Assembly (NCBI RefSeq): GCF_964204645.1
Contig: NW_027437437.1
Span: 62,001-126,000, forward strand
Source of the DNA: Tubulanus polymorphus
Lineage: Eukaryota > Animalia > Nemertea
DNA length: 64,000 nucleotides
Reading direction: 5' to 3'
The notes under the pieces are model-generated. The model saw only the letters and a list, made by a program, of their open reading frames with translations. It ran no database searches and had not been told where the DNA came from. Numbering within the stretch: position 1 is the stretch's first letter; the number at the start of each line of letters is the position of its first letter. The position numbers were made by a program, and so were the translations under genes. Of this stretch, positions 18,401 to 45,269 are shown one piece after another.

Positions 18401-18431
18401 GGTAGATATAGAACTATAATGGAGAAATTCA

Positions 18432-19489: not shown

Positions 19490-20290
19490 AGTCAGAATTG
19501 CTAGAAAAAGGATTATTTGATTTAACTGATGATGAATTAGAAACATTTCCTGAACAAGCACGTTGAGAAATTAAAGGTATGCAAGAATCAGCTGGTGAAA
19601 TTGCTAATATTAAGATGAGATTTTCTAAAATAACCATGTTAGAAAAAGAATTAACTAATGCATATGAAGGATTAAAACAATAAGAATTAGATAAAAATCT
19701 TCAAGTAATAGAGGAAGCTGATTATGAAAGCAGAAAGTTAGCTTTAGAACAAAAAAATAGATGATTTAAAACATAACAAAGAATTTCAGGAAAAAGAAAG
19801 AGATATATTATTAAAATCATTTGACCTTAATCATATTAAAAAATTAAAAGTTATTTTTAAAGATTTGTTGATTAAACCAAATTCTGAAATATCACTAACA
19901 GATAGAATAAAATTATTATTTAAATTAGAAGGAATAACAATTCTTTCAATTCTAACAGCTGTAACTATGGTATTTACAACAATAGGTTTAGCAATATCAA
20001 ATTCATTAAAATCTACTCCTACTCCCAATAAACCGGATAAACCACCGACTGATAATAATTCTATACAGGATAAAGTTAAGGATGGTTTAAGAAAATTAGC
20101 AAAATATTTATGAGAACTATCTAAAAAATCTGCTGCAGCATTACCCGGAGTTATTGCATCAATTGTTGGTTTTATATTGAAATCTGCAGGAAGTATTATT
20201 AACTTTGCTGCTGAACATATAATTTTATTTTTAAATACAGTTGTAAGTGCTATAATTTTTGGGTTAGTGAATATGATAAAAAATAAATGA
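19490..20290 (+). pseudogene. Coiled-coil/transmembrane Polinton protein, 3' part
   Basis: LLFKLEGITILSILTAV...AAALPG..ASIVGFIL matches copy B 40383-40787; several stops. Confidence 0.8.
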
Positions 20291-20310
20291 TTAGTTTTTT
20301 TGTTAAATAA

Positions 20311-21552
20311 ATGAATGGGAGTTATATAAATCCTTATAAGAATCATATAATATTTAATGCTATTAAAGTAGAAAGATCACATCATATAATTACTCATAAT
20401 CCTTCTAATATTAATCCTGATGAAACTTTATATGTTAGAATCCCTAGATCAACACAAAATACTTTTTATGTTCCAAATAGTATTTATTTATCAGCTGATA
20501 TAAAAGTAACCGGTAGTAATAATAATTATGTTGTCGATAATAATGGAAGATATTTGATTAAAACATTAACTATAAAGATTGATCTAGAAACAGTTTTCTC
20601 ATCAGATGATTATAATTTATTTATGCATTATAAAGATTTATGGTTAACAAAAGAAAATAGAAATAATATAATATTTCAAGGCATCCAATCAGAAAACTAA
20701 AATAAATTAAGATCAGAAGCTAATAATGCAGTAGTAACTAATGCTACAGATAATATGATCAAAAAGATTTATGGAAGCAAATATAAAATTCCATTAGATT
20801 TTGAATTGATAAATAATAATGCACCTTTGTATAAATACGCAATTCAAGAAGATGTTATATTCGAAATAACATTTGCTCCTGTTAATGAAATTTTATTATC
20901 TAGCGATGTTAAAGATATGGGTTATAAATTATCGAATATATGTTTAGAATATGATACAGTAACTGATGAAAATATTGCTAACACAATTCAAACTCAATAC
21001 AAGGATTTTCATTATCATATGATTATATTGATAAATTTAAAACTGTAATTATTAATGCAAATGATGAAATAATTAATGAGAATATTAACTTCCCAAGAAG
21101 ATCTATTAAAGGTATATTAATATTTTTACTATTGCAACATATACTAATGGCTCAATACAGGTTGATAAGTATTGTAATCCTGAAATAACAAAAGTAGAAA
21201 TAACTATCGAAGGAATAGCAAATAAGATATCTTGCCAAGGAATGAGAATGATAGATCAGTGGCCAGAAATTAGAAAACATTTTATGAATGAAAAAGTAAA
21301 ATCATCTGAAAATTGTAATATTAATCAAATTGATTATTATACCGGTAATAAATATGCATTATGGTTAGATTTTAGAACAACAGAGGTTAATTTATTACAT
21401 GGTTCTGGAAAAAAAACTACAGAACACTAAAGATGGGATACAATTATTCATGACAAAAAAAAGGAAGCTTAAATTTCAAAATGCACATTTATATTATATC
21501 TGACGCACAATTAAATATTGTAAATAATCAATTAAATAGTGTTATGTATTAG
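20311..21552 (+). pseudogene. Major capsid protein (double jelly-roll type), copy A
   Basis: ITHNPSNINPDETLYVRIP...LSNICLEYD...KYALWLDFRT...LHGSG...HIYIISDAQLNI; ~410 codons with stops and frameshifts. Confidence 0.85.
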
Positions 21553-21584
21553 AATTTTACTTTTAATCAAAAAATTTATAATAA

Positions 21585-22763
21585 ATGGAAGGAGGAATAT
21601 ATGAAATACAAAGTCCAAGTGAAATGATACCAGATATATATTATATAATACCTTATGATGAATACAGTAAGTATTTTGGAGAATACTTCTATTAATTCAA
21701 ATATAGAATAAGTAAAATTGATAATAATATTGAAACAAAAATAGAAGATAATATTGAATCTAAAACAGATAATAATATTGAAACAAAAATAAAAGATAAT
21801 AATATTGAATCTAAAATAGAAGATAATGTTATACCTTCTACATCGAATGATGATACGATTGAACCTGATATCAAAACCAAAAAGACAAATGAAAAATATT
21901 GTGACGTATGTAAACAGTATAAAAGTTATAAGAATTGGGCAACTCATCTTAATTCACTCAAGCATAAGAAAAATAAGAATAAGACTATCAATGAATTGAA
22001 TAATAATAGTGAAATTGATAATGATAATGTTAAAGAAGATAAATATTGTGAAGAATGTGATAAATATATCAGTCGTAGTAATTTTTCAAAGCATAAATTA
22101 ACTCAAATACATTTGCATAATGTAGAAAGAAATATATGTGAAAAGTGTAATGTTGTTGTATTACCTAAAGATAAAATCAAACATGATATTTCTATTGAAC
22201 ATACAATAAAATCTATTGATTCAAAACGCCTTCCAACATAGAGTTCCAACTGTATTTTTTGATATCGAAAATAATAATCATAGGAAATTATATAGATCAA
22301 TTTTTATCGATTATGTAAGAAATAATCCAAAACAAGTATTATCAGATCTAAAAACTCGTCGGACATATATAAAAACATTTCCAGGTGATTATTCAGGTAT
22401 ACATTATTTCATAAAATTTAAAAATACAGATTTTTTAACAGACTTGAAAAAAGTTGCTGCTAATGATAATTATGATAATAAAAGTGATAACTTTGATGAA
22501 ATAATTCAATATTACAGTTATGAAGATTTTTTACAGGATGTTATAAATGAAATAAGAAATGATGTAAAAAATAAATATAAAAATATAAGTGAAGACAAAT
22601 TGAACCAATATATTTATTAACTTATGAATTGGATGCTAAGAATTTGAGTGCTGTTGATGGTTATCATACTAAACTATTAGGTGAAGTTGAAGGTAATAGA
22701 AAATCACAAGAATTAAAAGATGCGCGGCTCAAATTGTTTTTAGAATTAGAATCAGAAAAGTAA
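21585..22763 (+). pseudogene. Multi-C2H2 zinc-finger protein with DNNIE(T/S)K repeats (variable slot after MCP)
   Basis: YCDVC...H.....H, YCEEC...H.....H, ICEKC...H.....H; ~27-bp coding repeats at ~21720-21830. Confidence 0.7.
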
Positions 22764-22779
22764 TTTAAAATATGAATAT

Positions 22780-23378
22780 AATACCCTTGTGTCTTTATTG
22801 TCTTTAGTACTTTTAGTACTTTTAGTACATAAAGAATAAATCTTTATATTATAAGTAGTGAATAAAATCATTTTTAAAACTACTAAACTACTAAAGATAA
22901 TAAAGACATAAATATATATAATTACTGTTTCAATAATAATATTTATTTATCACACATATTTATTATATATTACTGTTTCAATAATGATAAATATCATAGA
23001 TTTATCATATATAAAAATTATTTATATATTTATTTTTCTAAGTACTAATAAAATAAAGATTTATTCTTTATGTACTAAAAGTACTATTAAGATAATAAAG
23101 ACATAACAAATACACATAGATGTATTATATATATTTGATTCAGTAATAAATATCGTAGATTTATTTATTATTTATCTCACAGATTTATTATATATATTTG
23201 ATTCAATAATGATAAATCTATGTGTGTTTGTTATGTCTCTATTGTCTTTATTGTCTTTAGTAGTTTAGTAGTTTTTAAAAATAATTTTATTTTTAAAGTA
23301 TTGATAAAATAAAGATTTATTCTTTATGTACTAAAAGTACTAAAAGTACTAAAGATAATAAAGACATAAGGAGGTATT
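22780..23378. repeat. ~600-bp palindromic region of inverted TCTTTAT/TTTAGTAC repeat arrays between convergent gene blocks (copy A)
   Basis: Left arm CTTGTGTCTTTATTGTCTTTAGTACTTTTAGTAC... is the reverse complement of the right arm ending ...AAAGACATAAGG; internal partial copies. Confidence 0.88.
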
Positions 23379-23407
23379 AATTTGAAATAGTTTAAATTAT
23401 TCTAATT

Positions 23408-24021
23408 TTATTTTATAAATTTATATTCATAGGGAAATTGAAGCCTCAGAAGTAATTTTGCTAACCTTTACTAATCTTTAATTTATTCATATATTCATCA
23501 TGTAATTCAGTAGGTATAATTTGATTTTCTTCCAATGATTGTTGCATAGATTTTCTATCTTTGTTATAAAATAAAACTAGAAATCTTATATTCTCCCTAA
23601 AGTCTTTAACAATTGAATTATATTTTTGATTTAAAACCCATGTTGTTATCCCAAAATGTCTCCCAGAGAAAGCTAGATAACATAACTCACTTTCTCTTAC
23701 TTTTGAATCATGTAAATTTGCACAATCATCTATAATGAATAATGTATTTGATCCTTTATAAATATCAATTGCTATTTTAATACAATTATCTAAATTTTCT
23801 TTTACTGTTTTAGGATCTAATATAATAAACTTTTTTATCTTAACTATATCTCTATTATATGTTTTATTCATTTCATAAGTAGGACAAAATAATATTATAT
23901 TAACAAAATGATTCTTATAATTAGTTTCTAACAAGTCTAATATGAAATATGTTTTACCACAGTTGGTTACCCCAGTAACTAACATATTATGCGGTTCAAA
24001 TATAAATAAATCTTTATTCAT
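23408..24021 (-). pseudogene. A32-like (FtsK-HerA) packaging ATPase, copy A
   Basis: Walker A GVTNCGKT, Walker B FIIDD, SGRH motif; premature end at 23461. Confidence 0.9.
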
Positions 24022-24896
24022 TTATTCTTTTAATTTTACTAGATAAAATCCATTCATTAAATTATTATCTTTTTAATCTTGAATATTTCTTCAGTAAAGT
24101 TAGGGGTATAACCTTTATAAAAGGTTTTTCTATATTTAGATATTCTTACATGTTGTCCTATCTTAAATTTAGGTTCTCCGAAATCATATGTAACAAACGC
24201 ACCATATAAATTATTCCAAACTATTTCTGAATTATCTTCTTTTCTAGCTTGTATAGGTTTCATATTTATAGAACTATGTTTAGAATTATTATAAACTTTC
24301 ACCAAATCATCTAATATATCGATATATTTATATGTTTCATTAGCAGTAAAATATTTCCACATTCTAGTTTTCAATGTTTTATTAAATCTTTCTATAATAG
24401 ATGCTTTTTTATCTGAGTGTGTTGAAAAATAATCTACATCGTTATCAGATAATAATTGTTTAAAATGTTTATTATAAAATTCTTTACCTTCATCAAATTG
24501 TATCTTATCTGGAATAGCTTCTTTAAATATTGATTTAAAAGCATTTGTTATTTTTAATTGGAATTGACCACGCGTATCTACTGAATATGTCTATAACATT
24601 TAATATCCAGAAATATCCTTTGTTGTATTCTTCTAAGTTCTTCATGTCAATGAAATCTGCTCGCCATTGTTGATCAATATATGAATCATAACTTTTCTTG
24701 TTAAATAAGTTTTATCCATTTTCTTCTGGATTTGATATGTTGGTTGATTTTGTAACCATAATCTTAATTCACTATATTTTATATCACCATTTTCTTTATC
24801 AGATTTAATTTTATCCCATAATTCTGTAACGCAAGAATATGATACTTCACTTTTTGGGTTGTAATATAACTCTCTTAAATATTGTTCTTTTTTCAT
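24014..24896 (-). pseudogene. Retroviral-like integrase, copy A (frameshifts; ~0.2-kb deletion removing most of the chromodomain)
   Basis: Direct homology to intact 43768-44859. Confidence 0.9.
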
Positions 24897-24902
24897 CTTA
24901 TT

Positions 24903-25271
24903 TTAATCCATTAATAATAATTTAGATTTAGTTTCAATGACTTTATGATTTGACTTATTTTCTGGTATAATAGGTTTATTATCATTGGAATCATCTTTAT
25001 CATCAGATTTATACTTATATTTATATATTACACCAGAGAATATAATAACTGTTACTAATCCAATTGTAATATATAAGTAATTATTTCTTCCACTATTAGA
25101 AGAATTAGATGGATTATTATTTGAATCAATATCAGATAAAGTCTGTGATTCATTTAAATCAGTTAATTTCTTTTTCTTAGCTTTTTTTAATTCTGCAGAT
25201 CTTTTACCTAATTCTCTTGCCCATATAATTTGTTTCTCGGATCTCGGCTTCTTCTTAACGCCATCACTCAT
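24903..25271 (-). CDS. Polinton small protein, basic N-terminus plus one transmembrane segment
   Basis: Intact 122-aa ORF, orthologous to 44866-45264. Confidence 0.75.
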   Translation of the reverse strand: MSDGVKKKPRSEKQIIWARELGKRSAELKKAKKKKLTDLNESQTLSDIDSNNNPSNSSNSGRNNYLYITIGLVTVIIFSGVIYKYKYKSDDKDDSNDNKPIIPENKSNHKVIETKSKLLLMD

Positions 25272-25873
25272 TTATTTTAGTTAATTTTTGTTTTGATTCA
25301 TTTTCTGTTTCACCGTTTGGGTGTCGTACGGCGCCATCTGTTTCGTTCTTACCTGATTTATATTCCATAGGCTTGATATTCGAAAATGTTATGACACCAG
25401 TAGAAATTAATGTCATAACCGATCCTAATTGGAATGATGCGTATCCAACCCATTTTTGTAATTCAGTCATAACTAAGTAGTCATTTTTCAAATCAGTATA
25501 TAATTTATTTTCATCATCAATTGACATTAACAGGTTACATAATTTTGAATAACATTTGACAATACCATCAGAAATAGAATCATTTATTCGGGCCAATGTT
25601 GCCTCCTCGTAAATCTTAAAATATTTTATTACTTTATCTGGTTTCATAGCATCTAATTCTTGAAAAGTAATGATCTTAGTTAAAAATTGATTACACTTTC
25701 CGCTAGCAATTAGTAATTCAAGATGGTGCTTACAATATAAGTAGTATTCATAATCAATATTACAATTAATATTATTTTCAATTTTGGTCGGAATATCCTT
25801 ATTATCACTAATGCCCAAATCATCTAATGTTTTTTTCAATGTTGGTATTATTCTTACTCGATTTCTTTGACAT
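25264..25873 (-). pseudogene. Polinton hypothetical protein
   Basis: Orthologous to ~45270-45861; TAAATG start at 25873; early frameshift. Confidence 0.7.
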
Positions 25874-26104
25874 TTATATTAGAGAAAAAAGCAAGAAAAA
25901 TATTATAAGTATTATAAAATGATACTAGATAGTTACAGTTAAAGAATTCTAGTATTAGTTATTGTTTTTTTAGTATTTTTTATTTGTGACATAAAGTATT
26001 CTCTTTTTGAAAAAAATAACAGATTTTGAAAAAAATTAAAATAGAAATAATGGCTAGTTGAAGTATGTAATTTTTATTATATTTTATTTGAATTCTATTA
26101 TTCT

Positions 26105-26797
26105 TTAACCATTTATTAAAGACTCAACGTATTGTTCATTATTTGGATCATTATTCCATAATTCAATAAATTTCTTTGCTTTATCCAGTTGATCCAAATA
26201 TAACTGTAAATCTAGTTAATTAAATTTTATTTTATTATCTTTCTTTTTAAGAGGTCTTAAATTCTTCCAATTCCAAATTAGTTTTTTATTGTGTTCAGCA
26301 TTCATGTTAAATTTAGATATTGGTAATCGATATCAAAATAATCTCCCTATAATTCATTTGACCATCGAATTGAAATATAATCCATGATTTAAGAAATTTA
26401 TCTGAACAGCCTAATAATTAGATTAGTGTGGCTGAATGCGTTTCTTTACTGAATAATTTTGATAATCTATTTCGCAAATATTGTTTCATTTTTAAATTAA
26501 GATCTGTTTGACGCCTTTCTTTATGATAATTTTTATTATACACTTTAATATGTTCTAAATGATTTTCTTTCCATTGCTTATTTTATCTTTGCGTGTTTCA
26601 GTATTATTTCTATAATTTTGTTTGCCACTTAGTTTACTACACGTTTTACAATAACTTTGCTTACCATCTTTCTGAGTTTTATAATTATAATATTCCGAGA
26701 GTTGTTTATATATTTTGCATTTACAACATTTCTTCTGATAAATATTTATAACATCATTATTGTTTATATTTATAGCTTGTTGTTGTTCTGACTCCAT
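26105..26797 (-). pseudogene. HNH endonuclease with N-terminal CxxC...CxxC (large-DNA-virus/phage type), copy A inner copy
   Basis: KKCCKCK...KDGKQSYCKTC, LLGCS..FLKSWI.FQFD, NWKNLRPL; fragmented. Confidence 0.78.
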
Positions 26798-27794
26798 TTA
26801 TAATACATATTTTTATTAAAATTGATTAACATTTTAGAATCCTCTTCCATTTCTCGACTAACGTCATCCTTTTTCATTCCTCGCTGCTTTTGATAAATCA
26901 TTTCGGTTCCTTGATATCAAAATCATACCATTTGCAATATCCGTGTTGCATGCGGACATCAATGTCCGCTTTTGATCAATGCGCATGCGCTAATCATAAT
27001 TGTATATTTATTCTGTAAAATTGAAACGACCGAACATAGAAAATTCACCAAGCAGATTTACACAATACATTTACAAGTATGTTCGGTCGTTTCATCCAAT
27101 ACATCATTTGATTTCTATAAATACAATTTATAATTACAAACATTTTTTCAATTGCCGGTAAATATTTAACTACATCAACAAATGTTAAACTTAATCATTG
27201 GAATTTTCGGAGTAGTCTAAATGTTTTTGAAATTCTTATATAGTTTCTTCGTCGATCTCTTGTATTTCTTGTGGTTCTACGCCAATTTCTATTGGTTCGA
27301 TATCCATTGCTGTCGATTCCTCGGAAAGAGTATCTTGAGTTTCTCTATCGCTTCTTGATGCGTATGACATTTTATTAATCTAAAAGATATTAGTGGTAAC
27401 TCTAGCTATCTAAAAGATATACTAAATACACTTAAATATATTTAAAGGTTTCATATTTAGTAGCCCCCTTTCCCTACTTCATAATAACTACAAAAAACGG
27501 TACTTACATTTAGATTTAGAACTGTAAACCTTAACTCCGAATTGTGTTTCGATAGATAAATCCTAAGCGTTCTGTATACACCATCTATTCAGTTCGGGCG
27601 CGCCTTCCAGAATGATCTGATACGTCTGCGGTTTATTATGACTCATTATGTCTGGCGGGCGTCATGGAAACGCTTGACAGCTGTGAATTTATAGGCTTAA
27701 TTAAATAGTTCTTTACATGAAATATAACAGATGTTTTAGTAACCAAAAGCTATGTATTATATACATACAAGGCTCAAATAGAGTTGCCGGTTTT

Positions 27795-28214
27795 CTAACC
27801 ACTGATTAAAACCTCAGAATGCGGTTGATTCTGCGAGCTACTATTCCATAATTCAACAAATGTCTTTGCTTGAACCAGTTGATCTAAATATAACTGTAAA
27901 TCAAGTTTATTAGATTTGATTATATCCCTCTTTTCTAAAGGTCTTAAATTTCAATTATTCATATTTCTAATATGACTTTTAGATTTTAAATGTTCTTTAT
28001 GATATCTTTTATCACTGAATGATTGATTACATGTATCACATTTGTATGTTTCTTTTTCATTCTTTAATTCATCTAATTTAGTTTCTAATATATCATCTTT
28101 ATATTCTAATTTCAATTTATTCCCTAAATGTGTTTTAGTTTTATTGTGTCTTGCTTTTTGAGATTTATCTATATTGATTTTACATGTCGGACAGTAGTAC
28201 CTATTTGCTTCCAT
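27795..28214 (-). pseudogene. Chimera of PolB N-terminal zinc fingers and HNH C-terminal tail
   Basis: MEANRYYCPTC...KSHIRNMNN* is followed in frame by NLRPLEKRDIIKSNKLDLQLYLDQLVQAKTFVELWN. Confidence 0.8.
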
Positions 28215-28293
28215 TTTAATACTAAATTTTTTATTAAAATTGATTTTAGAAGTTATTCATTTATATGTTATTCATATATATGAATATTTTAAG

Positions 28294-28445
28294 AGTAATA
28301 GGGATAATTGGCGTTCAGGTTAAAGGTTGAAGGGGCGGGCGAGTAAAAAATGAAAAATAAATTCGAGCGTGCGAGAATTTATTTTTCATTTTTTATGAGC
28401 TCGACCCTTCGACCTTTGGCCTGAACGCTCATTATCCCTATTACT
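28294..28445. repeat. 152-bp terminal self-inverted hairpin module of copy A
   Basis: AGTAATAGGGATAAT ... ATTATCCCTATTACT with inner stem AAAAAATGAAAAATAAATTC/GAATTTATTTTTCATTTTTT. Confidence 0.9.
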
Positions 28446-30764
28446 GACGTTGAAATCCCTGTTGACTATAATTAGAAATAACATTTTCGAGTAGGTTAAA
28501 GAGTTCAGGGGAGTCATTAGAAGTGTGGAAATTAGAGTCACTCGGTGGGATATAGGTGATGCATAGAAACATATCTTTGTCAAGGTTGAAAAAAGATTTA
28601 CAAAGCTTGATCAAGAGAAGTTCGCTTGATTTAATGGGCAAGGCTTTTAATACCTTGTTTTATAGAGTTTTTTATGAGAAGGGCAATGCCACCATAGTGC
28701 TTTTTAGCGTTTTTGGATTTAGCGCGAGTATTATGAATGGTGGAAAAACCAGGTATTTCAAGGATATCGGTGTTAGAACAATGAGTCTCAGCCAGGCGAA
28801 TAATGTCATCCTTAGAGAGATCGGTATTCGAAAAACGCCTAATGAAAAACACCAAATCGGAAAACGCATAACGCCTAATTCAAGTAACATCCAAGAAATT
28901 GACCTAAATCCCTACGTGAACTATGTACGCAACGCTACATAGTTCACGTCGGAGTGCGTGGAGCGCCGCCTGTTCCATCTTCGTTTCTACGTGAAGCGTA
29001 AAACACATGTATTTTCAAACTGTTCCGTTGATGGGTTGGATTGTGAGTCTCAGTAGATGGTGCAATTACGAAATTAGGTCATTTTCTAGGAATTAGGCGT
29101 TATGCGTTTTCCGATTCGGTGTATTTCGTTTTTCGAGTACCGTAGAGAGATTGCGGTGTACATCAGGGTCTGAGAGTTTACAGTATTTTTGGCCGTTAAC
29201 TCTCCGGAAAGCACCATCGATATTCCAGAAGCAGGTTGAAATCATAGCAGGGCAGGTCATAGTATCATAAACAAAAAAAGAATAACCTATAGATGAGGGA
29301 TCGAGGGCTGTTACATACAATGAGAGTACAATATAGAATATATAGAGACCAGGCTATTGAAGTTTAGGTGCCCATTCGGATATATATGAAGGTTTGAGGG
29401 GACGCAGAAACATCAGTGCACTAGTAGGTTCACAGATATAGAATATACAAGATACATACAGATTGTAGATGCAGATGATATCTTTGATGCTCATGAAGCA
29501 GGTGTGTTTTAAGTAGGTACAAAAGTATCGATTCCTAGTGAGTTTAACAAATATAAAAAATACAAGGTACATAAGATTGTAAATACAAGGTAACTAAGGT
29601 TATAAAGTATTTTTTCCATTTTCTTTAGCAGTTTTAACATAGAGATCAATAAACTAGAGCAATAGACTCAATTATAATTAGCTGTAACATAACATTTATG
29701 AATGATTTAAGAGATAATCCCGGTTAACGGTAGAAAGCGGGTGGATTTATACACCCAGCAAGATAATCCAGGATCTGTTGTACGTGGTTGTAGTTGATCG
29801 GGCCGGTGTGGAAGTTGTTTCTCTGTCCTTTGTTATTGTACGAGCTCGAGAAACGATTGGATGGAGATGGATATCCGTGCGGAACGCGATGAGTAGGAGC
29901 TGGAGTTGCGGTTCCAGAGAGTCCTTGATAGGCTCTCACAAGAAGGCCGGTGCCTTTCTTATTGAGATGTACGCAGTCTGTTTTGAAATAGACGGACGAC
30001 ACAGATTTTAAGGCGGACGGGAGGGCGAAAATATCACAATGCAGGGTCTTCAGCCTTTCGGAGTAGCTGGAAGCTCTCGTTGAGTATCCTTCATCAGCTC
30101 GCGGTAGAGCTTCGGTGATGTAAATCGACGCATTCGTGAACTTTCGCTTGCATAATTCAATGCAAGTGTCAACGCTTTCATGAGCCAGGTCATTGTCGCT
30201 GACCTGTAGGTAGACCTTGACAATGTTGTCATTGCACTGGAGTCGTAGGCGCCCTGAATATTTTTCGCGTCCTTTTCTAATGTTTTGATCGATGTGTATT
30301 GCCCTGGAAATAGTGCGGCGGGCCGTAAAAAACGCGTATGGGAGTTCCCGACTACGATGATCTCCGCGGATTTCGCAATATTGTTACTCAAATTTGCGTT
30401 CACCGGGTTAGGAGCGGCATTGATAGAGGTTGGTGAAGGTTTCGTTTTGGCGACGGTGGTGAACGGTCTCGGATCGGAGAGTGCGTGGTTAGAAGATTTC
30501 AGGGATATTATCTCTTCGTTCAGCAAGTCATTAGTCGAATTTGCAATCAACAAGTTGTCTTCGAGGGTCATAACGGTTGACTTAAGTGACTCTAATGATC
30601 GGTTGGAGGAAGAAATATCATTTTTGCATTTCTTCAGAGCGGACGTAACATGTGATATTCTGTCCTGACTGGAGCGGAGTTTGCAGGACAGGTCATCTAT
30701 CGCTGAGCTTAGTTCGATGACTTTTCTTTTCGTTGATCGGGCAAACACCGCAGGAGGTGGTGTA
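28446..30764 (-). mobile_element. CR1/L2-like LINE, middle part: ORF1 coiled-coil plus SGNH esterase-like domain, start of ORF2 AP endonuclease
   Basis: IIVVGNSHTR and DCVHLNKKG (SGNH-like); DII.LAETH, GGIALLIK, TYIPP and a (G)DFN-like motif cut at 28446 by the copy A terminus. Confidence 0.82.
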
Positions 30765-31302
30765 AGTAATAGGGATAATAGGCTTTCAGATCAAAGGTCG
30801 AACGGTCGAGCTCATTAAAAAACAAAACATTAAAAGTAATTTAAAACTATAATATATTTTCATAACCATGTGCATTTTATATTATAACTAAATATTTATT
30901 CTAAGATATCAATAATTTAATACAATACACAAATTCATATAATCAAATATATTTTAATAATAATAATTATTCTATTATTCAACTGAAATACACACGGTTA
31001 TGAAAATATATTATAGTTTTAAATTACTTTTAATATTTGTTATTAATGAACTCGACCATTCAACCTTTAACCTGAAAGCCTATTATCCCTATTACTCTTA
31101 AAATAATCATATACATGAATAACATTTAAATTGACAGATTATTCAATATAAAAGTATATATTTACAACATTATTTCAATATTCTTATTTGTGTGAGTTAG
31201 ATTTTTAAACATTAAAAGTGTTAGTAAAGTGTGATTGAAATAATACATGATATAAATCATTGAACTTCTAAAATCAATTTTAATAAAAGATTTAGTATTA
31301 AA
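30765..31302. repeat. Left TIR (~540 bp); first 332 bp (30765-31096) are self-inverted
   Basis: Reverse complement of ~47628-48216; the terminal ~107 bp recur inverted at ~30991-31096. Confidence 0.92.
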
Positions 31303-34300
31303 ATGGAAGCAAATAAGTACTACTGCGCAACATGTAATATCAATATAGATAAATCCCAAAAAGCAAGACACAATAAAACTAAAACACATTTAGAGAATAA
31401 ATTGAAACTAGAATATAACTATGATATATTAGAAACTAAATTAGATGAATTAAAGAATGAAAAAAAACATACAAATGTGATACATGTAATCAATCATATA
31501 GTGATAAAAGATATTATAATGAACATTTAAAATCTAAAAGTCATATTAGAAATAAGAATAATGATATTTTAGGTGAAGATTATTTTGATAAAGATAATGA
31601 TAAGAAACAGAAAACAATTAAAAGCATAAAAAATAAATTAAACAATAAAAGACCATACATGGAAGATGTAAGAAATTATATTAATTCATTAGATAATAAA
31701 AAAGATATAGAGATAACGGAAGCATTTAAAAGTGATATTGGTCCAGCAGGAATCGAGTTTAAATTTCATAAAGGAAAAACATTAGAAGAAAATAAAAAAC
31801 ATTTAGAAAATATGAAAGAAATAATAAAAATAATTACTGATGTTGAATATCCTAAAATAAGTATATCTTCTAAAGTTAAATTCATAAAATCCGAAGATAA
31901 ACCAATATATAATATAAATTCTCATTCACAACATATTATTTCAAAACAACATATAGATGATAAATTAGATAAATGTTATAATGAAGTAAAAACTAAAATA
32001 GAAGAGAAATATTTTGAAGGATCTGGTTTTAATATTTGATGAAATAATATTTATGACTTTACATGTTTATAACACAAAATATAATAAGTTAACTAAATCA
32101 AAACCAATAGATGAAAATAATGTATCATATTATAAAGAACCAGATATTGAAGCATCGAGTTATATTAAACTACCATTTAAAACTAATGCTGTAATAAATG
32201 TACAAAATGAAGATGATAAATGTTTTCTATGGGCCATAATATGTTGTTTACATCCTGCAACTTATAATATTTGTAGATTAACTCATTATAAACCATTTGA
32301 AAATAATTATAAGATAGATAAGTATCCTGTTAGAATTAAAAACATCCCAAAAATAGAAAGAGATAATAATATAAAGATAAATGTATTTGATTTAATCAAA
32401 TTACCAAATACAAAAGGTAACAATATAAAACATTATACATTAGAACCTTTATATATATCAAAAGATTATGATTCAAATGATGTTATAGATATACTATATT
32501 ATGAGAATCATTATATGTGGATTAAACAAATAGATTTATTCTTTAGAACAGAAAGTGATCACCATAATAAAATATATCTTTGTAGAAAATGTTTACATAG
32601 ATTCAGTAATGAAAGTACATTATTAAATCATAAACAATTATGTGAAAATCATGATTATTGTAAATTAGTTTTACCAAATGAAAAGGATAAAATATTAGAA
32701 TTCAAAAAATATGATTACAAAAATAAAGTTCCACTTGTTATATATGGAGATTTTGAATCATTAAATAAAGAACTAACTGATCAAGATAGAAAAGAAATAT
32801 ATTATAAGAGAAAGAAATTAAATTCTAATGAAAATGATTATTCTGAAGAACCACCAAAAACAAATACTATTAAAAAGATTCATCAATCAGCTGCTGCTTT
32901 CGGGTTATATATTAAATCTGATTATCCAGAACTAATTGAAAGTGAATATTATGATTATAGAAATGAAAATGTTATCAATCATTTTTGTGACTTATTAATT
33001 GAATATGAAATAAGATTTAGTAAATTATTGAATACAAATATAGAAATTATAATGACAGAAGAAGATAAAGAAGCATTTGCGTTTGCAGGTAAATGTTATT
33101 ATTGTGAAAAGATAATTAATTATAAAGATAAAAAAGTAAGAGACCATGATCATTTGAATGGAAAGTTTAGAGGCGCTGCACATGAGAATTGTAATTTACA
33201 AGCTAAGAAAATTAATTTTGTACCAGTTATATTTCATAATCTATCAGGATATGATGCACATTTATTTATCAAACAGTTATGTCATAAAATAGAAGAAATT
33301 AATAATGAAATAGAAAGATTAAATTCAAATAGATCAAAAGATAAAATACCAACTTATAAATTTAGAATGTTAGCTAAAACATCTGAGAATTATATATCAT
33401 TCCAATTTGGATGTCTAAGATTTATAGATTCATATAATATTTTTAAGTAGTTCATTAGATAACTAATCAAAATCATTAGTTGGTGATGAATTAAAAATAT
33501 TAAAGCAACACTACCCAAATAATGATGATTTTCAATTAATGAGATATAAAGGAGCAATTCCATATTCTTTCTATAAAAATCATAATGATTTCAATATAAC
33601 TGAATTATTGAAAGAACAATTCTATGATGAATTAAAAAATGAATATGTTAAAGATGAAGTCTATAATAGAACATTGAATATTTGGAATCATTTCAAAATA
33701 GAAAATCATGGGCAATTAGTAGATATATATTTAAAATCAGATGTATTATTATTATATATTCGAAAGGTTTAGAGATGTAAACCTAAAATATTTTAATATT
33801 TAATCCTTGTCATTGTTATTCTAGCCCAGGTTTAACATGGGATTGTGGTTTAAAATTTACAGATATAAAAATGGATTTGTTAACAAATATAGATTAATTA
33901 TTATTATTTGAAAAATCTATAAGAGGAGGAGTTTCAGGTGTATTAGGCGATAGATATTTCAATGTAAATGATAACCCTGGATAAAAGTTATTATATATAG
34001 ATGCAAATAATTTGTATGGTTGGGCAATGATGGAACCACAACCTTATGGAGTATTTGAAATAAGTGAAGTTTTACAGAATGAAAATAATGATAAATTTGA
34101 TTGGAAGAAAAGAATTCTAGATATTGCAGATGATTCAGATACTGGTTACTTCTTTGTTGTAGATTTAGAATATCCTGAACATATTAAATTTAAATCTAGA
34201 AATCTAGCATACTGTCCAGAACATAAAACTGTAACTCATGAAGAATTATCAAATTACCAAAAAAGAATTAAACCCGAAAATCATATTCATACAGAAAAGT

Positions 34301-35334
34301 TAATGGTAACTCAAGAAGATAAATATAATTATGTAGTACATTATAGAATGTTGAAGTTTTATTTGAATCAAGGAATGATTCTAAAAAAAGTACATAGATA
34401 TATTTCATTTAGTCAATCTAAGTGGTTAGAAAAATATATAGATTTTAACACCAAACAGAGAACTGAAGCTAAAACTGATTTCGAAAAAGATTTCTTCAAG
34501 TTAATGAACAATGCATTCTATGGTAAGACTTATGAAAATATTAGAAATAGAAATGATATTGAGTTAGTTAGTAATGGCAAAAGGATAAGGCATTTACAAT
34601 CATATCCTAAGTTCATTGGTAACAGAATATTTGATGAAAATTTAGCTGCAGTTAAAATGAGAAGAACTTCTATGAAATTTAATAAACCAATCTATGTTGG
34701 CGCTTCAGTTTTAGAATTATCAAAATTACTAATGTATGAATTCTATTATAATGTATTACAACCACTTTTTGGAGAAAAACATATAGAAATCTTATATTTT
34801 GATACAGATTCTTACATATTAAAGATAAAAACTGATAACATAACTGATGATTTAAAAACATTAAAACATCATTTTGATTTCAGTAACTATCGTAAAGATC
34901 ATGAATTGTTTAGCAATGATAATAAAAAAGTTCCCGGTAAATTCAAAGATGAATTAGGTGGTGAAGAAATGATTGAATTCATTGGTATTAGATCCAAAAT
35001 GTATTCATATAAAACTAAAGAACATGAAGCTAAATAGTTAAAAGGAATAACCAAAAGTGTAGTAGAAAAGAATATTCATTTCAAAGATTACATCAATTGT
35101 ATATTCAATGAAGAAGTTAGAAAACATAAGATGAGATGTTTAAGATCTGAAGATCATGAAATGTTTATTGAAGAAATTGAAAAGATAAGTCTAAACCCAT
35201 TTGATGATAAAAGATATATTCTGGATGATGGAATTCATACAGTTGCTTATGGTTGTAATTTAGATGAATACTTAAAATTTAAAAGAGAAGAAACAAAAGA
35301 GAACGAGATAATGAAAAGAATTCTAACGTGTTAA
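31303..35334 (+). pseudogene. Protein-primed family B DNA polymerase polyprotein (C2H2 fingers, putative terminal protein, OTU-like domain, exonuclease with endonuclease VII insert, polymerase)
   Basis: DDKCFLWA...NHYMWI; YGDFES, FHNLSGYD, YLKSDV; CYYC...RDHDHLNGKFRGAAH..CN; YIDANNLYGWAM, KLMNNAFYGK, YFDTDS; several stops and frameshifts. Confidence 0.96.
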
Positions 35335-35363
35335 TCAAATTTTAATAAAAATATGTATTATAA

Positions 35364-35717
35364 ATGGAGAGTAAACAAGCGCACAGTGAGAAAAACAAAT
35401 CATTTCTAGATAGAATAAAAGATACTACAAATGTAAAATCTGTAGATTATAAATTCAAAAAGTTAACAGAATTAACAATTCATAAGAAATATCTAATTAC
35501 AAATATTGATACAGTTACTAATAACTATGGAGATAAATTAGTTATACACTTAGAATATGAAGGATTAAAAGGAAATACATATAAATTCAGAACATATTTA
35601 CCGGATAGATTTCATAGATTATCAAGTGAAGATTTAGAAGAATTATGTTCTGGAGATTTCTATTTCGTATACAAAGGTAAGAATGAAAAAGGGCATCATG
35701 AAATAGATTTCGAATAA
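35364..35717 (+). CDS. Small Polinton protein, possibly OB-fold ssDNA-binding
   Basis: Intact 117 aa directly after polB; FKKLTEL...Y.I...NYG..LVI.L...YLPDRF pattern; function is inference. Confidence 0.55.
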   Translation: MESKQAHSEKNKSFLDRIKDTTNVKSVDYKFKKLTELTIHKKYLITNIDTVTNNYGDKLVIHLEYEGLKGNTYKFRTYLPDRFHRLSSEDLEELCSGDFYFVYKGKNEKGHHEIDFE

Positions 35718-35734
35718 GAAAATATGTAAAATAA

Positions 35735-36493
35735 ATGGTAGAATTAAAAGAATACAGAATATTTGTTGATTCTAGAAGACTTACAAATTATAAATCTCAT
35801 AATTTACCAGTACAATTAGATAGGGAATATAAAAATTGTGTAGATTTAAAATTAGTAAATATAAGTTTATGTAATTCTTTTTATAATATAACGGATAAAA
35901 CTATTGAAGATAATGCTTTTATGATTCATATTAGAAATGTAAATAAATGGTTTCATCTAATTTTAAAACCAGGATTATATAATTGAGAAACATTAGCTCA
36001 AGAAATTAATCGAAGAGCACGGTTGAAAATTAGAAAAGATGATAAATTTTTAATTAGATTTATAAAAAGTGATAGCACAAATAAAATTAAAATAAAGGTA
36101 TATGATGAAAGTCAACATGCATTTATGGTAAAAAAACCATTAGCTAAACTGTTAGAAATTGCACCAGATACTGTTACAGGAAACGTAGATGGTAATTCAA
36201 ATATAATACCTTTTACACACTTTTATATTTATTGCAATTTAATCGAGCCTACAAAAACATTCGAAGCAACTAAAGATACAATTTGTAATTCTAGTATATT
36301 GAATATTTTACCATTAAAAAATGTTAAACAATTTGGAACGCAAATAGATTATAATTTAACAGAATGTGATTTCAAACCATGCATTTCTCAATTTAATAAT
36401 TTTAGATTAGAAATAAGAAATCACAATGGATATTTAATTGATTTGAATAATTTTCCTGTGATATATGAATTAGTTATAAGATGTAGAGAGTAA
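35735..36493 (+). pseudogene. Minor capsid (penton, single jelly-roll) protein
   Basis: IFVDSR...NSFYNI and FYIYCNLI...ILNILP...FRLEIRNHNGYLIDLNN; two same-frame ORFs separated by one TGA at 35984-35986. Confidence 0.82.
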
Positions 36494-36510
36494 TGTTTTT
36501 CACTATATAA

Positions 36511-36867
36511 ATGAATATAACTGTTGGACCGAGTATATGTTTTGGGTTTGATTTTAAACGTGAGAAAGAAATGAAATTTAACATTACTGATGTAATTACA
36601 CATATCAAAAATATAACATTTTCTAATGAAACAACATTTGAGTATGAAACAACAATAAATAAAGAAACTTTAAATGTAGAAAAGATTACTAATTTGATTA
36701 GAGAATCTTTAAGATTTTATGAATTAGATGAAGATTTTATCATCGATGATATTAAAAAAATAATAATTGAAATATATACAAATGAAACTAGTAATGAAAT
36801 AAATGTTGAATTAATCATAAATAAGATAACTAAATATTTTGATGATAGTAATTTTTTTGATAAATAA
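36511..36867 (+). CDS. Polinton hypothetical acidic protein
   Basis: Intact 118-aa ORF in a tightly packed block, TAAATG start. Confidence 0.65.
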   Translation: MNITVGPSICFGFDFKREKEMKFNITDVITHIKNITFSNETTFEYETTINKETLNVEKITNLIRESLRFYELDEDFIIDDIKKIIIEIYTNETSNEINVELIINKITKYFDDSNFFDK

Positions 36868-37089
36868 ATGAGTGATAATAAGTGGATAATAACTGGATTA
36901 TATAACAGAGCATTACTATCAGTTGGAACTGTTGGTTATTCAATGGTATTAAAAAAAGTATTTAAAATGGGAAGTGTTAATGTTGATAGATTTGATATCA
37001 ATGATATTTTAAAATTAACATTAGCAGTCACTTTATCTAATTTAACTATTGATTATTTGGAAAAACAAAAATATATTCCTCCCATATAG
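36868..37089 (+). CDS. Small hydrophobic protein (73 aa)
   Basis: Two hydrophobic stretches, TAAATG start. Confidence 0.7.
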   Translation: MSDNKWIITGLYNRALLSVGTVGYSMVLKKVFKMGSVNVDRFDINDILKLTLAVTLSNLTIDYLEKQKYIPPI

Positions 37090-37113
37090 ATACATAATTA
37101 TTTTACTAAATAA

Positions 37114-37536
37114 ATGGCTTCTGCAGTTATAACTATTATAGGATCGGCAATTGTTAACGCTTTAGCATTTACTGGTGGTGGTTATTTATTCAAGCATATT
37201 GATAAAAATGGATCATTAACAGAACAAAAAAGACATAACTTAGCATTAGAGAAATACAATAAAGCAGCAGAAGAATATAGAGAAAAACGACAAAACTATA
37301 TGGATTATATTAACAAAGAATTATATGATCAGAAGATTTCACATAGAGATTTTCAATCAGTTGATGATGCAATCAGTTTATATAACGCAGTAACCAATAA
37401 AGAAAAATTACATCTACATAAACCTACAATATCAGATTATTATACCCCAAGTAATGAACAGAAGAAATATGAAATAATATGGATTTTAGGTGGAACAGTT
37501 ATTGTTATATTTGTTGCTTATAAGTTTACTAATTAG
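37114..37536 (+). CDS. Membrane protein with hydrophobic termini and central coiled coil (140 aa)
   Basis: MASAVITIIGSAIVNALAFTGGGYLF...IIWILGGTVIVIFVAY. Confidence 0.75.
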   Translation: MASAVITIIGSAIVNALAFTGGGYLFKHIDKNGSLTEQKRHNLALEKYNKAAEEYREKRQNYMDYINKELYDQKISHRDFQSVDDAISLYNAVTNKEKLHLHKPTISDYYTPSNEQKKYEIIWILGGTVIVIFVAYKFTN

Positions 37537-37555
37537 TAATTTTTTTGCTAAATAA

Positions 37556-37990
37556 ATGGAAGATAAAGTTGATAATATTGATATTATTCCTCATGATATA
37601 AATAAAACTAAATTAAAAACATATTTAGAAAAACAAATATTAGAATTTGAAAGTGATTTAAAAGTTAAAAAGAAAAAATATTTAAAAAGTAAAATTATAT
37701 ATTATCTTATTATCAGTGGTTCGGTTACAATTTGTTCTGTAATAACATTTCTAGCAATATTCAGTCCATTAACACCTTTAGCTATATCAATTGGTGTATT
37801 AGGATTAAGTTCAAGTGTTTTAACTGGTATAAGTTCAAAATTGAATATAAAAAGTAATAAAGAAAAAATTAAAACTAATATAAAAGAAATTAATAAATTA
37901 AAGAATACACTAGATTATATGATAAGTTTAAATGGCCATATAACAGTTGAAGAACAACATAAATTATTAAAAGAATTAATAAATTATTAA
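37556..37990 (+). CDS. Two-TM, coiled-coil protein (144 aa)
   Basis: IIYYLIISGSVTICSVITFLAIF and LAISIGVLGLSSSVLTGI flanked by charged helices. Confidence 0.72.
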   Translation: MEDKVDNIDIIPHDINKTKLKTYLEKQILEFESDLKVKKKKYLKSKIIYYLIISGSVTICSVITFLAIFSPLTPLAISIGVLGLSSSVLTGISSKLNIKSNKEKIKTNIKEINKLKNTLDYMISLNGHITVEEQHKLLKELINY

Positions 37991-38006
37991 TTTTTGAGTT
38001 ATATAA

Positions 38007-39334
38007 ATGGCTAGATAGTTTTCCAAAAGCTTTCCAATATAATAAATCAATTAAATATAATATTCCAGCAATAGATTTTAATAAAGATATTACATATAGA
38101 AATGAAGTTTTAAATTCATTAATTGATTTATATATTTATGTTACTGAAAGTAATAATTTTCATGTAAAGATGGAAAATATATTTCATGTGTATACAATTA
38201 ATTTTCAAAAATTTAAATGAGGCAAAACAATGGTTATTAAAATCTAATATGAAGTATTGGCAGAACCAATTAAATTTTGCTGTTTATTGCGCAACAACAG
38301 GTTGTGGAATTAGTTGGAATGATCATTTAAACAAACCAAGTTTACCATTGATGTTATCACTTTTTAGATTTCATACATATTTTCAAATAAAATTAATATT
38401 AGATGAATTAGAATGTCCTTTACCAGGTTCAAAATTATTTAAAAATTTGAATAATAATATTAATTTTTCTAAGTTTTATAAAATATGTAATGAATTTAAT
38501 ATTAATTCAAATAAAGATTTTAGAGCAAAAATTGGAACAATGGGTGGATTAGGAATATTATATACTAAAGAATTTGGAAAAATAATGACAAATTCAGATA
38601 TAGGAACACTAAATTGGAATGAATTACCAAAATATTATAATAATATACAACAACAAAACAATAATGGTTGGGTTAATTTCATTTTAGAAAATAGTGAAGG
38701 TTTTACTAAAGCTGGTATACAAAGAATAAATCAATCAATTAGAACTTATTTGATATGTATTTTAGGTGCGCAAGTTGAAACAAGATCCCCAATAATTGGA
38801 AATGATAACACTTCATTCGATGCGCAGAAACAACTCAAAGTATTATTTGAAGATTCAATTCATTATGATAAAAATAGATCGATTCCAGAAAACATTGTAA
38901 GATATCAAAATTATTTAGATAAATCACATATTAGATTAAATTATTGTATAGGCCCTAATCTATTAATTATTTCTAATGATTTAGTATTAAAGATGGGAAA
39001 TATAATTGGTTATAATAATCTAATTAAAACTGCAACAATAAATAATTCATTTGGATTGAATGATACAACTAAAAAGATTATCACTGCTCCAAAATAAATG
39101 GAGGGTGAAAAAAATAAAAAACACATTCAATCAACAGAAACTAAAACTAATAATATTAAATTAAATAATGATTCTAAAATAAAAGATTACAATACATCAG
39201 AAAATATTAGAACTGATATTATTCAACATGATATAATTAAAACTAATGATGATAATAAATCCCATGAAAATGCTAAATTAGCTTTAACTTGTGTAGGAAT
39301 TGTAATCGGAGGAATATTATATTTTAGATTTTAA
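38007..39334 (+). pseudogene. ~440-aa Polinton protein with C-terminal TM anchor
   Basis: TAAATG start at 38007 with early disruption; 38186-39097 and 39098-39334 are in one frame separated by a single TAA; ends LALTCVGIVIGGILYF. Confidence 0.7.
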
Positions 39335-39350
39335 TTTTTTCATTATGTTA

Positions 39351-40787
39351 ATGGCAGAAGGTGGAGAAGATATTCCAATAGATACTTTTGGTGACGCTCC
39401 CGGCATAAGTGATGAACAACCACCTGATTTTAGTGAAACAAGTTTTAGTAATGATGGTAATGAGCCAGAATATAATTCTAATTTAAATACACCTGAAGTT
39501 GTTCCTGGTTCTAAACCCCAATCAACAAATGAATATATTAAAGGAGCTAGATCGAAAATACGTGCTGAAAATTTAGTGCCAGGTTTAATAAATAAAGAAT
39601 TAAATTATGATGAAATCTGGTTTCAATATAACAGATAAAGGTATGGATATATTAGCAAAAGATTTGAAATATTTAAAGGGTGTTTATTATTGGAAATTGA
39701 AAGGCGACTATCATTTTATTATTTTAAATATTAAAAGTAACGATAAAATAATAGCACAATCAACTTTTAAATTATTAGAACAATCTAGAATTAAGAAAAT
39801 CAATAATGATGTTATAACTGATGTTACAAAAAAGAAAGATCTGTTAATTTAAAAGAATTTAAACAAAGATATGCTAAATTTTTTAAGATCATTAATGAAA
39901 AATTAGAACCAGAAACAATTACTAAAGAAGTTATTAATTCCAAAACTAGTAAACCTAATTCAATAGAAGTTCAAACTGAAAAACTTTTACCGAAGGGATT
40001 ACTTGGTGCAACAGATCAAGAATTAGAAAATTTAAATATATTTTCTGATGAAGCAATTAGAGAGATTATTAGTATAAGAAATGCATCTGATAAAATTGCG
40101 CATGAAAAAAATATAAGAGATTTAAAAATTAGAACTTTAGAAAAAGAATTAACTGATAAAAATGAAGAAATAGAACAATTAGATAGAGATAATAAAGTTA
40201 TTGAAGAAATAGAATATAGGCAAAAAGAATTACGTTTAGAAAAAGAAATTGATGATTTAAAATATAATATAGAATTACAGAAAGAAGAAAGAGATATATT
40301 ATTAAAAGAATATGGTAATAATCTTAAAAGGTTAAAAGATGTTTTTAAAAGATATCTAATAAAACCAAATTCTGAAATATCATTGAAAGATAGAATAAGA
40401 TTATTATTTAAATTAGAAGGAATAACAATTCTCTCAATTCTAACAGCTGTAACTATGGTATTTACAACAATTGGTTTAGCTATATCAAATTCTTTAAAAT
40501 CTACTCCTACTCCCAATAAACCGGATAAACCCCCAGGTAATAATTCTATACAAGATAAAGTTAAAGATGGTTTCAAGAAATCAGCAAAATATTTATGGGA
40601 ACTATCTAAAAAATCTGCTGCAGCTTTACCAGGAATTATTGCATCAATTGTTGGTTTTATATTGAAATCTGCAGGAAACATTCTTAACTTTGCTGCTGAA
40701 CATATTATTTTATTTTTAATTACAGTTGTAAGTGCTATTATTTTTGGGTTAGTAAATATGATATCAAAAAATATCAAGAAAGAATAA
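39351..40787 (+). pseudogene. Long coiled-coil protein with C-terminal multi-TM region
   Basis: MAEGGEDIP... start; fragments in several frames; three hydrophobic segments at 40383-40787. Confidence 0.72.
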
Positions 40788-40836
40788 TAAAAAATAAACA
40801 TAATCAAAATAAATAATTAATTTTTTTGTTAAATAA

Positions 40837-42016
40837 ATGAGTGGGAGTTATATCAATCCTTCTAAGAATCATAGAATATCTAATGCTATTAAAGCAGAAA
40901 GATCACATCATATAATTACTCATAACCCTTCTAATATTAATCCCGATGAAACTTTATATGTTAGAATTCCTCGATTAACACAAAATACTTTTTATGTTCC
41001 AAATAGTATTTATTTATCAGCTGATATAAAAGTAATCGGTAATAATAATAATTATGTTGTTGATAATGTTGGAAGATATTTGATTAAAAAGTTAACAATA
41101 AAGATTGGTCCAGAAACAGTTTTCTCATTAGATGATTATAATTTATTTATGCATTATAAAGATTTATGGTTAACTAAAGAAAATAGAAATAATATGATAT
41201 TTCAGGGTATTCAATCGGAAAACCATAATAAATTAAGATCAGGAGCTAATGACGCAATAGTAACTCGTGCCACAGATAATTTGATTAAAAAGATTTATGG
41301 AAGCAAATATAAAATCCCATTAGACTTTGAATTGATAAACAATAATGCACCTTTATATAAATACGCAATTCAAGAAGATGTTATATTCGAAATAACATTT
41401 GCTCCTGTAAATGAAATTGTATTATCTAGCGTTGTTAAAGATATGAGTTATAAATTATCAAATATATGTTTAGAATATGATACAGTAACTGATGAAAATA
41501 TTGCTAGCACAATTCAAACTCAATACAATCAAGGATTTTCATTATTATATGATTATATTGATAAATTTAAAACCGTAACTATTAATGCAAATGATGAAAT
41601 TATTAATGAGAATATTAACTTCCCAAGAAGATCTATTAAAGGTATATTAATATTTTTTTACCATTGCAACATATTCTAATGGTGCAATACTGGTTGATAA
41701 GTATTATAATCCTGAAATAACAAAAGTAGAAATAACTATCGAAGGAATAGCAAATAAAATATTTTGTCAAGGAATGAGAATGATAGATCAATGGCCAGAA
41801 ATTAGAAAACATTTTATGAATGAAAAAGTGAAATCATCTGAAAATTGTAATATTAATCAAATTGATTATTATACCGGTATTAAATATGCATTATGGTTAG
41901 ATTTTAGAACAACAGAGGATAATTCATTACATGGTTCTGGAAAAAAACTACAGAACACTTAAGATGGAATACAATTATTCATGACAAAGAAAAAAGGAAG
42001 CCTAAATTTCAAAATG
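40837..42016 (+). pseudogene. Major capsid protein, copy B (frameshift ~41660; last ~25 codons deleted)
   Basis: Highly similar to 20311-21552; homology stops abruptly after AAATTTCAAAATG. Confidence 0.87.
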
Positions 42017-42573: not shown

Positions 42574-42588
42574 TTTCCATTTATATAT

Positions 42589-42908: not shown

Positions 42909-43159
42909 AACACATTCAAAATTCTATAATATTTTAAATTAGGATTTTATTTTGTAAATTTATATTCATACGGAAATTAAAGCCTCAGTAATAATAAATA
43001 ACCTTTATTATTTTCAAACTAATTCATATATTAGTTGAAAAAAATAAAAATAAATTGGTTGAAATTATATGAATAATATTTATTTTAAAAATGGGGTTTC
43101 AAGCATTAATGTATTTAATACGTATCTAATACGTATTAGATAGATAGATATATAAATAG

Positions 43160-44859: not shown

Positions 44860-44865
44860 CTTCTT

Positions 44866-45264: not shown

Positions 45265-45269
45265 TTATT

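Follow-up and report, generated by a model that had tools for sequence, protein, structure and literature searches.

Polinton copies and genes in the window

The window analysed here, a stretch of 64,000 nucleotides, was found by self-BLAST to hold one Polinton with both of its ends, copy B, together with two remnants, copies A and C (Table 1). TIRs in the range of 100–1500 bp that characterises Polintons, accompanied by a 6-bp TSD, were found in copy B only (547/598 nt, GGTGTA); since the left end of copy A and the right end of copy C are missing from the window, the TSD can be checked in one of the three copies. The left and right TIRs of copy B are identical at 522 of 541 aligned positions, with 63 gap positions (98% over the first 301 nt), and its ends read AGTAAT, giving the AGT start and a 5/6 match to (AGT)2, which along with (AG)3 is the end motif of Polintons. 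TIR length varies between subfamilies: the right end of copy A (27943–28266) matches the left end of copy B up to 31572, into the start of polB, while the right end of copy B continues instead into a different ORF (47127–47627).

Copy B is apparently inserted in a decayed PHD-finger/coiled-coil frame (30050–30790 and 48283–48975), which we take to resemble LINE ORF1. A Helitron Rep/PIF1 remnant (14957–18863) adjoins the missing left half of copy A; an element with ~490-nt inverted ends (78%) built of 70-nt repeats occupies 7084–14059; and a GIY-YIG fragment flanked by perfect 59-nt inverted repeats lies at 63125–63968. Between copies A and B (28806–29210) there is a separate MITE-like palindromic repeat of ~300–400 bp, at ~350-fold read depth.

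The pPolB of copy B is broken into several reading frames; a related locus, L003, has it in one unbroken frame of 1305 codons, to which the three ORFs in Table 1 are 64%, 73% and 83% identical. On the copy C frame, DNA_pol_B_2 was matched at E 9e-6, 0.5 bit under its cut-off. Among the 27 ORFs scanned there was no Pfam match to a major or minor capsid protein or to a maturation protease, and a single ORF is listed as a candidate capsid gene. In L003 (1–7154, ~80% DNA identity) the right-hand gene block stands directly downstream of polB and in the same direction, so that either the order of the genes differs there or the assembly has been collapsed. Just past the stop of the ATPase, where the gene blocks converge, long AT-rich palindromes occupy the same place in five elements (42588–42909 and 22744–23413 in the window, L001 3504–3695, L002 3033–3105, L004 9082–9359), with sequences unrelated to one another; they are candidates for a bidirectional terminator.

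In much of this, copy B is like the animal Polintons/Mavericks (adintoviruses) as portrayed in PMC8097293, PMC8502044 and 10.1101/2023.08.22.554363: these share with it a length of ~17 kb, TIRs of ~550–600 bp, a 6-bp TSD and an AGT start, as well as a pPolB with TP-like and OTU-like N-terminus, an rve integrase, an ATPase and two inward gene blocks. It differs from those accounts in its tip, which reads AGTAAT and not (AGT)2, and in a TIR that opens with a fold-back copy of the tip 150–400 nt in size. The main texts of the three papers make no mention of a terminal palindrome or hairpin, nor was such an end of an animal Polinton met with in the openly accessible passages surveyed of 10.1101/2025.02.07.637071, PMC12220804 and PMC8547959.

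Table 1. Positions of the Polinton copies, their terminal modules and their coding features within the window.
Feature	Position	Strand	Details
Polinton copy A, right half only	19507–28445	.	self-BLAST against B, 73–96%
A-right module, 152 nt	28294–28445	+	inner arm 28294–28364, loop, outer arm 28375–28445
Polinton copy B	30765–48216	.	two-ended, 17,452 bp; recognised by TIRs and TSD and by its pPolB, rve integrase and A32-like ATPase
Copy B left TSD GGTGTA	30759–30764	+	from sequence
Copy B left TIR, 547 nt	30765–31311	+	module included
B-left module, 332 nt	30765–31096	-	outer arm 30765–30877, spacer 30878–30985, inner arm 30986–31096; - strand folds better, its 3' end being the terminus
Central-hairpin point	30920–30921	.	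most B-type reads hold an extra hairpin of >40 nt here, missing from both copy B ends
pPolB of copy B, several broken reading frames	31461–35037	+	ORFs 31461–32039, 32002–33450, 33985–35037
Terminal-protein-like (D1) domain of pPolB, predicted	31707–32073	+	position inferred from L003 residues 81–201
Endonuclease VII-like insertion in pPolB	33055–33201	+	PF02945 E 1.3e-5
Candidate capsid ORF	40837–41676
Packaging ATPase fragment	43160–43525	-	Pox_A32 E 1e-4, 22.3 against a cut-off of 22.8 bits
rve integrase with chromodomain	43768–44865	-	PF00665 E 9.9e-9, PF00385 E 8.2e-5
Copy B right TIR, 598 nt	47619–48216	-	module included
B-right module, 328 nt	47889–48216	+	orientation as in B-left
Copy B right TSD GGTGTA	48217–48222	+	from sequence
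Polinton copy C (left end, partial polB)	60295–62977	+	self-BLAST against A and B, 90–92%
C-left module, A-type, 110 nt	60295–60404	-	alignment to A-right begins at module position 43

Anatomy of the terminal fold-back module

The ends of this Polinton family start with an imperfect mirror-image copy of their own tip, forming a module of 150–400 nt that comes in several sizes. The exact 15-nt terminus occurs seven times in the window (28294+, 28431-, 30765+, 31082-, 47889+, 48202- and 60390-), and a search allowing up to two mismatches gave no site in the window beyond these. A preliminary description of the locus had the terminus present twice, in inverted orientation, at each end; this is so at B-left, B-right and A-right, while C-left has lost its outer 42 nt and the outer terminus with them, which accounts for the single 15-mer there. 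Similarly, the 152-bp module ascribed to copies A and C stands for A, and C retains 110 nt. The ~330-bp module with ~107-bp arms given for copy B agrees well with what was measured, 332 and 328 nt with arms of ~110–113 nt (57 nt at 89% and 53 nt at 94%), a spacer of 108 nt and an AT-rich interior. The arms of the A module are 71 nt long, 61 of the 71 positions being paired, and enclose a 10-nt loop. All modules have the first ~57 nt of each arm in common; beyond that point the interiors of B and of A/C are unrelated, as had been stated, and each is palindromic. A source for the B interior was sought elsewhere in the window, with weak AT-rich matches and nothing convincing. Exact 15-nt inverted pairs 40–700 nt apart form 17 clusters in the real window, three of them being these modules, against 0–2 per shuffle in 20 shuffled windows. 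Both arms (30786–30812) also carry two spaced GGTCGA-like repeats, reminiscent of a nuclear-receptor direct repeat.

The stem is flush with the terminus, with 15/15 pairs formed in A and 25/25 in B-left. The module adjoins the TSD inside the TIR, and its claimed position within the TSD holds for both ends of copy B, where GGTGTA lies outside it, A and C having one end each in the window. Outer and inner arms are distinguishable, since positions 28 and 35 differ alike in the A- and B-types, and the outer-type arm sits outside at all four ends; the orientation is fixed, with no flip, and the shared relative orientation of the two B ends is thereby confirmed. Comparison of the A and B outer arms revealed three transversions (positions 20, 39 and 52), all of them matched in the inner arms, and a further six transversions, confined to the inner arms, that break pairs. 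Between A and B, 11 of 56 inner-arm positions differ, a higher proportion than in the shared block of the TIR interior, which is identical at 302 of 322; the inner arm is thus no better conserved than the TIR interior.

It could be supposed that such a module is a self-perpetuating by-product without function, in which snap-back errors of the polymerase make palindromes, and template switching and copying from TIR to TIR keep them symmetrical. The interiors, wholly different and gaining or losing pieces, are consistent with this, as are the unrelated long palindromes at the internal site of gene convergence, the divergence of the inner arm at the pace of the TIR interior, and the excess of outer over inner arms described below. 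Taken alone, however, a by-product predicts neither the flush register, nor the fixed inner and outer marks at positions 28 and 35 that the A- and B-types have in common, nor the one-strand G·T bias to which we now turn, and we regard this explanation as unlikely.

Strand bias and variation across the family

When folded, as proposed in the preliminary description, the modules pair far beyond chance, with z-scores of -17.9 for B-left (0 of 100 shuffles as good) and -16.1 for the A module (0 of 200). When the mismatches in the aligned arms are read on the 3'-terminal strand, G·T outnumbers A·C by 10:1 in B-left, 7:1 in B-right and 6:0 in A. All 12 distinct transition sites in the well-paired stems are G·T (p 0.0005), where the limit of the stem was set after inspection and the full alignments give 14:1. 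After removal of four sites private to one copy, three of which were identified by reads and one by comparison of B-left with B-right, the family-level sites are G·T in 8 cases out of 8 (p 0.008). Six control internal hairpins gave G·T:A·C ratios of 5:3, 16:4, 6:3, 0:0, 2:3 and 1:2; the second of these is biased too, so that the bias is not unique to the modules. Folded as DNA, the 3'-terminal strand reaches -97/-95/-60 kcal/mol, against -85/-90/-51 kcal/mol for the opposite strand (B-left/B-right/A), an advantage of 5–12 kcal/mol, which becomes 20–37 kcal/mol as RNA (for B-left, 37 against 12). No such bias would be expected of a cruciform, in which both strands are exposed. The bias, which did not figure in the preliminary description, therefore favours a hairpin on a single strand over the cruciform suggested there. 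Deamination of the displaced strand would not rescue the by-product, since it would be expected to bias the 5'-terminal module instead.

The larger advantage as RNA raises the alternative that the module acts within outward transcripts, as a terminator or a dsRNA signal. The energy gained from a G·U-type bias fits such a role, and palindromes do occur where two gene blocks converge, in the relatives L001, L002 and L004 as well. The genes beside both TIRs point inward, however; Rfam gave only two generic miRNA-precursor matches, at 28–31 bits against cut-offs of 75–85; and an RNA signal would not require the exact terminal sequence. A role as an RNA hairpin is accordingly quite improbable.

For the family as a whole, raw WGS reads of run X6 were used, which bears the same species label and comes from another study; ~12% of the run was taken, and placed twice. 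(Six runs were matched in the search, among them X1, a marine metagenome with a share of 0.07 and 15 records, which says nothing on habitat.) Reads with mixed flanks stop at the outer tip, 1771 of them at 30765 (agreement 0.34), and in the second placement 1573 at 30765 and 547 at 28445; with the TSD outside the module in copy B, this upholds the claim that the module is part of the element, family-wide. Depth is continuous across the inner tip, with 1932 at 31084 and 1982 at 31106 in the first placement, while in the second the inner arms had 2327 at position 11 and the depth directly inside them was 2297. No loose-end row for the inner tip appears among the six listed for X6 in either placement, where the lowest listed have 278 and 415 reads. 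If the listed rows are the best supported, then solo, flipped or inner-integrated ends make up less than ~16% of outer ends. As the outer tip has many different insertion flanks and the inner tip continues into the TIR, solo modules, flip-flop and use of the inner tip as a further integrase end have at most a minor place, and the suggestions to that effect in the preliminary description find no backing here.

It is very improbable indeed that the module is an independent MITE or mini-Polinton merely adjoining the ends, or that it acts as a second integrase end. The module does have correct termini on both sides, and the arms are 4–6 times deeper than polB where a factor of 2 would be expected; but the excess of ends over polB is as well explained by internally deleted copies, depth runs on past the inner tip, and the window contains no solo copy, the TSD in B lying outside the module. 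The depths in X6, ~9 in the flank, ~550 in polB and 2300–3600 in the arms, are not convertible to copy number. Depth on the outer arms exceeds that on the inner ones by a factor of 1.56 (3624 against 2327), which counts against universality of the module: unless library bias is responsible, as many as about one in three ends may have no inner arm that can be recognised. As a separate observation, the summed contig depth over the Polinton (30705–33200) is ~3000 times that of the flank in run X2 and ~60–70 times in X3 and X6, figures that again do not give copy number; the excess in X2 could be due to the library type or to an amplified element.

The two size variants of the preliminary description proved too few, as the reads contain at least five interior variants, symmetrical wherever readable. 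At the central-hairpin point, 743 and 822 loose ends and 243 bridging reads were counted in the first placement, and 741 and 853 loose ends in the second. Both ends of copy B share the absence of this hairpin, which suggests copying from one TIR to the other. An A-type variant, seen in 415 loose ends at 28346 and in 78 reads that span the joint 28399–28380, has an insertion in each arm at matching places; its pieces, compared by eye, are reverse-complementary at 22 of 25 positions; a short variant of ~95 nt is represented by 25 reads (joints 28335–28396/28399). Polymorphisms are mirrored between the arms: at arm position 11 the alternative base is carried by 2057 of the 3624 reads on the outer arm and by 1304 of the 2327 on the inner arm, and at position 20 by 793 of 1155 and 846 of 1262, respectively. 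These are separate counts for each arm and not linkage on the same molecule, and some reads may sit on the wrong arm (387 of 15147 fit two places).

The polymerase, related termini and possible roles of the fold

A structural model of the N-terminal region of the L003 polymerase (pLDDT 75.6) has as its best viral matches the PolBs of an adintovirus, a MELD-virus and mavirus. When the L003 D1 model was compared with the PDB by Foldseek, nearly all of the listed rows were Y-family polymerases, one of them the little finger on its own (1unn_C); the E-values began at 1.4e-3, none reaching 0.001, and the probability was up to 1.0. According to PMC11071308, a Y-family little-finger match is the mark of a PRD1-like terminal protein, in which the linking Ser/Tyr is found near a Gly between helix 2 and strand 4. 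A Gly-Ser at that site is invariant in 16/16 aligned rows, and C252 and H350 of the OTU-like (D2) domain are invariant in 25/25. The pPolB thus keeps a predicted terminal-protein-like fold and, to judge from these models, the lineage is likely to have retained protein priming.

The endonuclease VII-like domain previously noticed in polB is real (Table 1), and its DHDH..CN motif is intact in B, in C and in a relative. The same Pfam domain occurs in 7 of 24 homologous polymerases, so that the proposed connection between this enzyme and a cruciform at the ends amounts to co-occurrence.

Parvovirus ITRs and poxvirus hairpin telomeres are likewise long imperfect terminal palindromes able to fold flush, from which the present ends differ in showing no flip/flop mix, in that the scan of 27 ORFs gave no Rep/HUH nuclease, in keeping a predicted protein-priming domain, and in integrating with a TSD. 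By analogy with parvoviruses, the folded 3' end might itself prime synthesis, and the endonuclease VII-like domain would then cut the hairpin or dimer junction. Since a palindrome is normally inverted by hairpin transfer, the identical orientation at four of four ends tells against this model, as does the scarcity of inner-type ends with host flanks (fewer than 278 reads against 1771, if the listed rows are the best supported). In its favour, pairing of the terminal 3' base with the inner tip is flush, with the TIR interior as the next template; the better-folding strand is the one bearing the 3' end; the nuclease motif is intact; and self-priming has been proposed for elements of Halocafeteria (10.64898/2026.07.28.741278). 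The predicted TP-like domain has been retained, however, and the nuclease domain is common among pPolBs, where PMC11071308 reads it as a homing-endonuclease insertion. Self-priming of this kind is, on balance, decidedly unlikely. It is also improbable, if slightly more so, that the ends work in two modes, combining TP priming with a self-priming folded 3' tip whose head-to-head junction is cut by the element's own endonuclease VII-like domain; if true, this would be a hybrid of adenovirus-like and hairpin-telomere replication.

The closest precedent for the module is in Halocafeteria seosinensis, whose endogenous virophages (subtypes 1, 2, 5 and 6) and PLV subtype 4 have terminal palindromes (10.64898/2026.07.28.741278). 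These too lie inside the TIR, adjoin the TSD and are present in all copies of a subtype, and a hairpin role was proposed for them; they measure 52 nt in the case figured and go preferentially with non-pPolB replicases (10.64898/2026.07.28.741278). The module described here is 3–8 times longer, imperfect, variable in its interior and strand-biased, and it belongs to an animal element with a TP-bearing pPolB. A search of viral contigs gave no match to the terminal motif and no relative of the integrase. The wider comparison with related elements that had been proposed was carried out on 83 loci (79 metagenome, 4 genome), none of which reaches or matches the tip, so that another species with this end was not recovered; the closest, L001–L004, with 63–84% integrase identity, end inside the element. 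Two palindromes among these loci were considered as Polinton tips and rejected, that of L049 as a tandem satellite and that of L081 (16342–16518) as repeated beside a retroelement, and a 224-nt inverted repeat around a distant element in L081, containing short internal hairpins only, was dropped as a control for want of an AGT end and a TSD. What is described here is a large, plastic and strand-biased fold-back tip on a terminal-protein-bearing Polinton; terminal palindromes are on record for protist virophages and PLVs, and the literature surveyed gave none for animal Polintons.

Polinton strand-displacement replication passes through single strands, and so, reportedly, does the excision model of Kapitonov and Jurka of 2006. 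The explanation we tentatively prefer, at a little short of an even chance, is that a fold-back on the 3' end supplies the single strand with an origin in duplex form and with a template for repair, much as the telomeres of Streptomyces work. The palindrome would arise when the polymerase snaps back and switches template, an event that would have recurred with different interiors, and one TIR would be copied onto the other, as the want of the central hairpin at both B ends suggests. In vivo, when a genome copy is single-stranded, the module at its 3' end would then fold back, so making the origin locally double-stranded and offering it to the terminal-protein-primed polymerase, while the copy of the tip at the inner end, opposite the terminus, could serve as the template for restoring a damaged end. 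Streptomyces telomeres have terminal-protein-primed ends on which the single-stranded 3' part folds back (PMC5449611, PMC8743542); a 3' end that has been truncated is repaired there on the folded strand as template, after which the terminal protein primes (PMC5449611). That TP-capped telomeres need folded palindromes, as PMC5449611 has it, makes it too strong to say, with the preliminary description, that protein-primed replicons require only a simple origin. Streptomyces differs in being bacterial, in having several small palindromes and the Tap/Tpg machinery, and in combining an internal origin with end patching (same sources), and we use it as a working analogy without homology.

The preference for a fold-back acting as origin and repair template rests on the flush register, the mirrored near-terminal polymorphisms, the strand bias, the fixed orientation and the retained terminal protein. 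Against it, mechanical correction of a palindrome would also give matched arms, and the difference between strands is far larger as RNA than as DNA. In either case there is a tip predicted to fold better on the 3'-terminal strand, which has been rebuilt with new interiors, yet is flush and oriented, and terminal palindromes are extended from protist elements mostly without pPolB to one that bears both pPolB and a predicted terminal protein. To our knowledge, the route from the chromosome to a free, protein-primed linear Polinton genome has never been shown; for the question of how an integrated Polinton takes that route, the tip provides a short and concrete substrate on which priming and end repair can be tested. 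Should the module prove to be a by-product, it would still record repeated snap-back copying at Polinton ends.

The tip sequence itself is also subject to variation. At 30784, 278 reads diverge in the first 19 nt of the tip and match further in, and these represent a subfamily with another terminal sequence.
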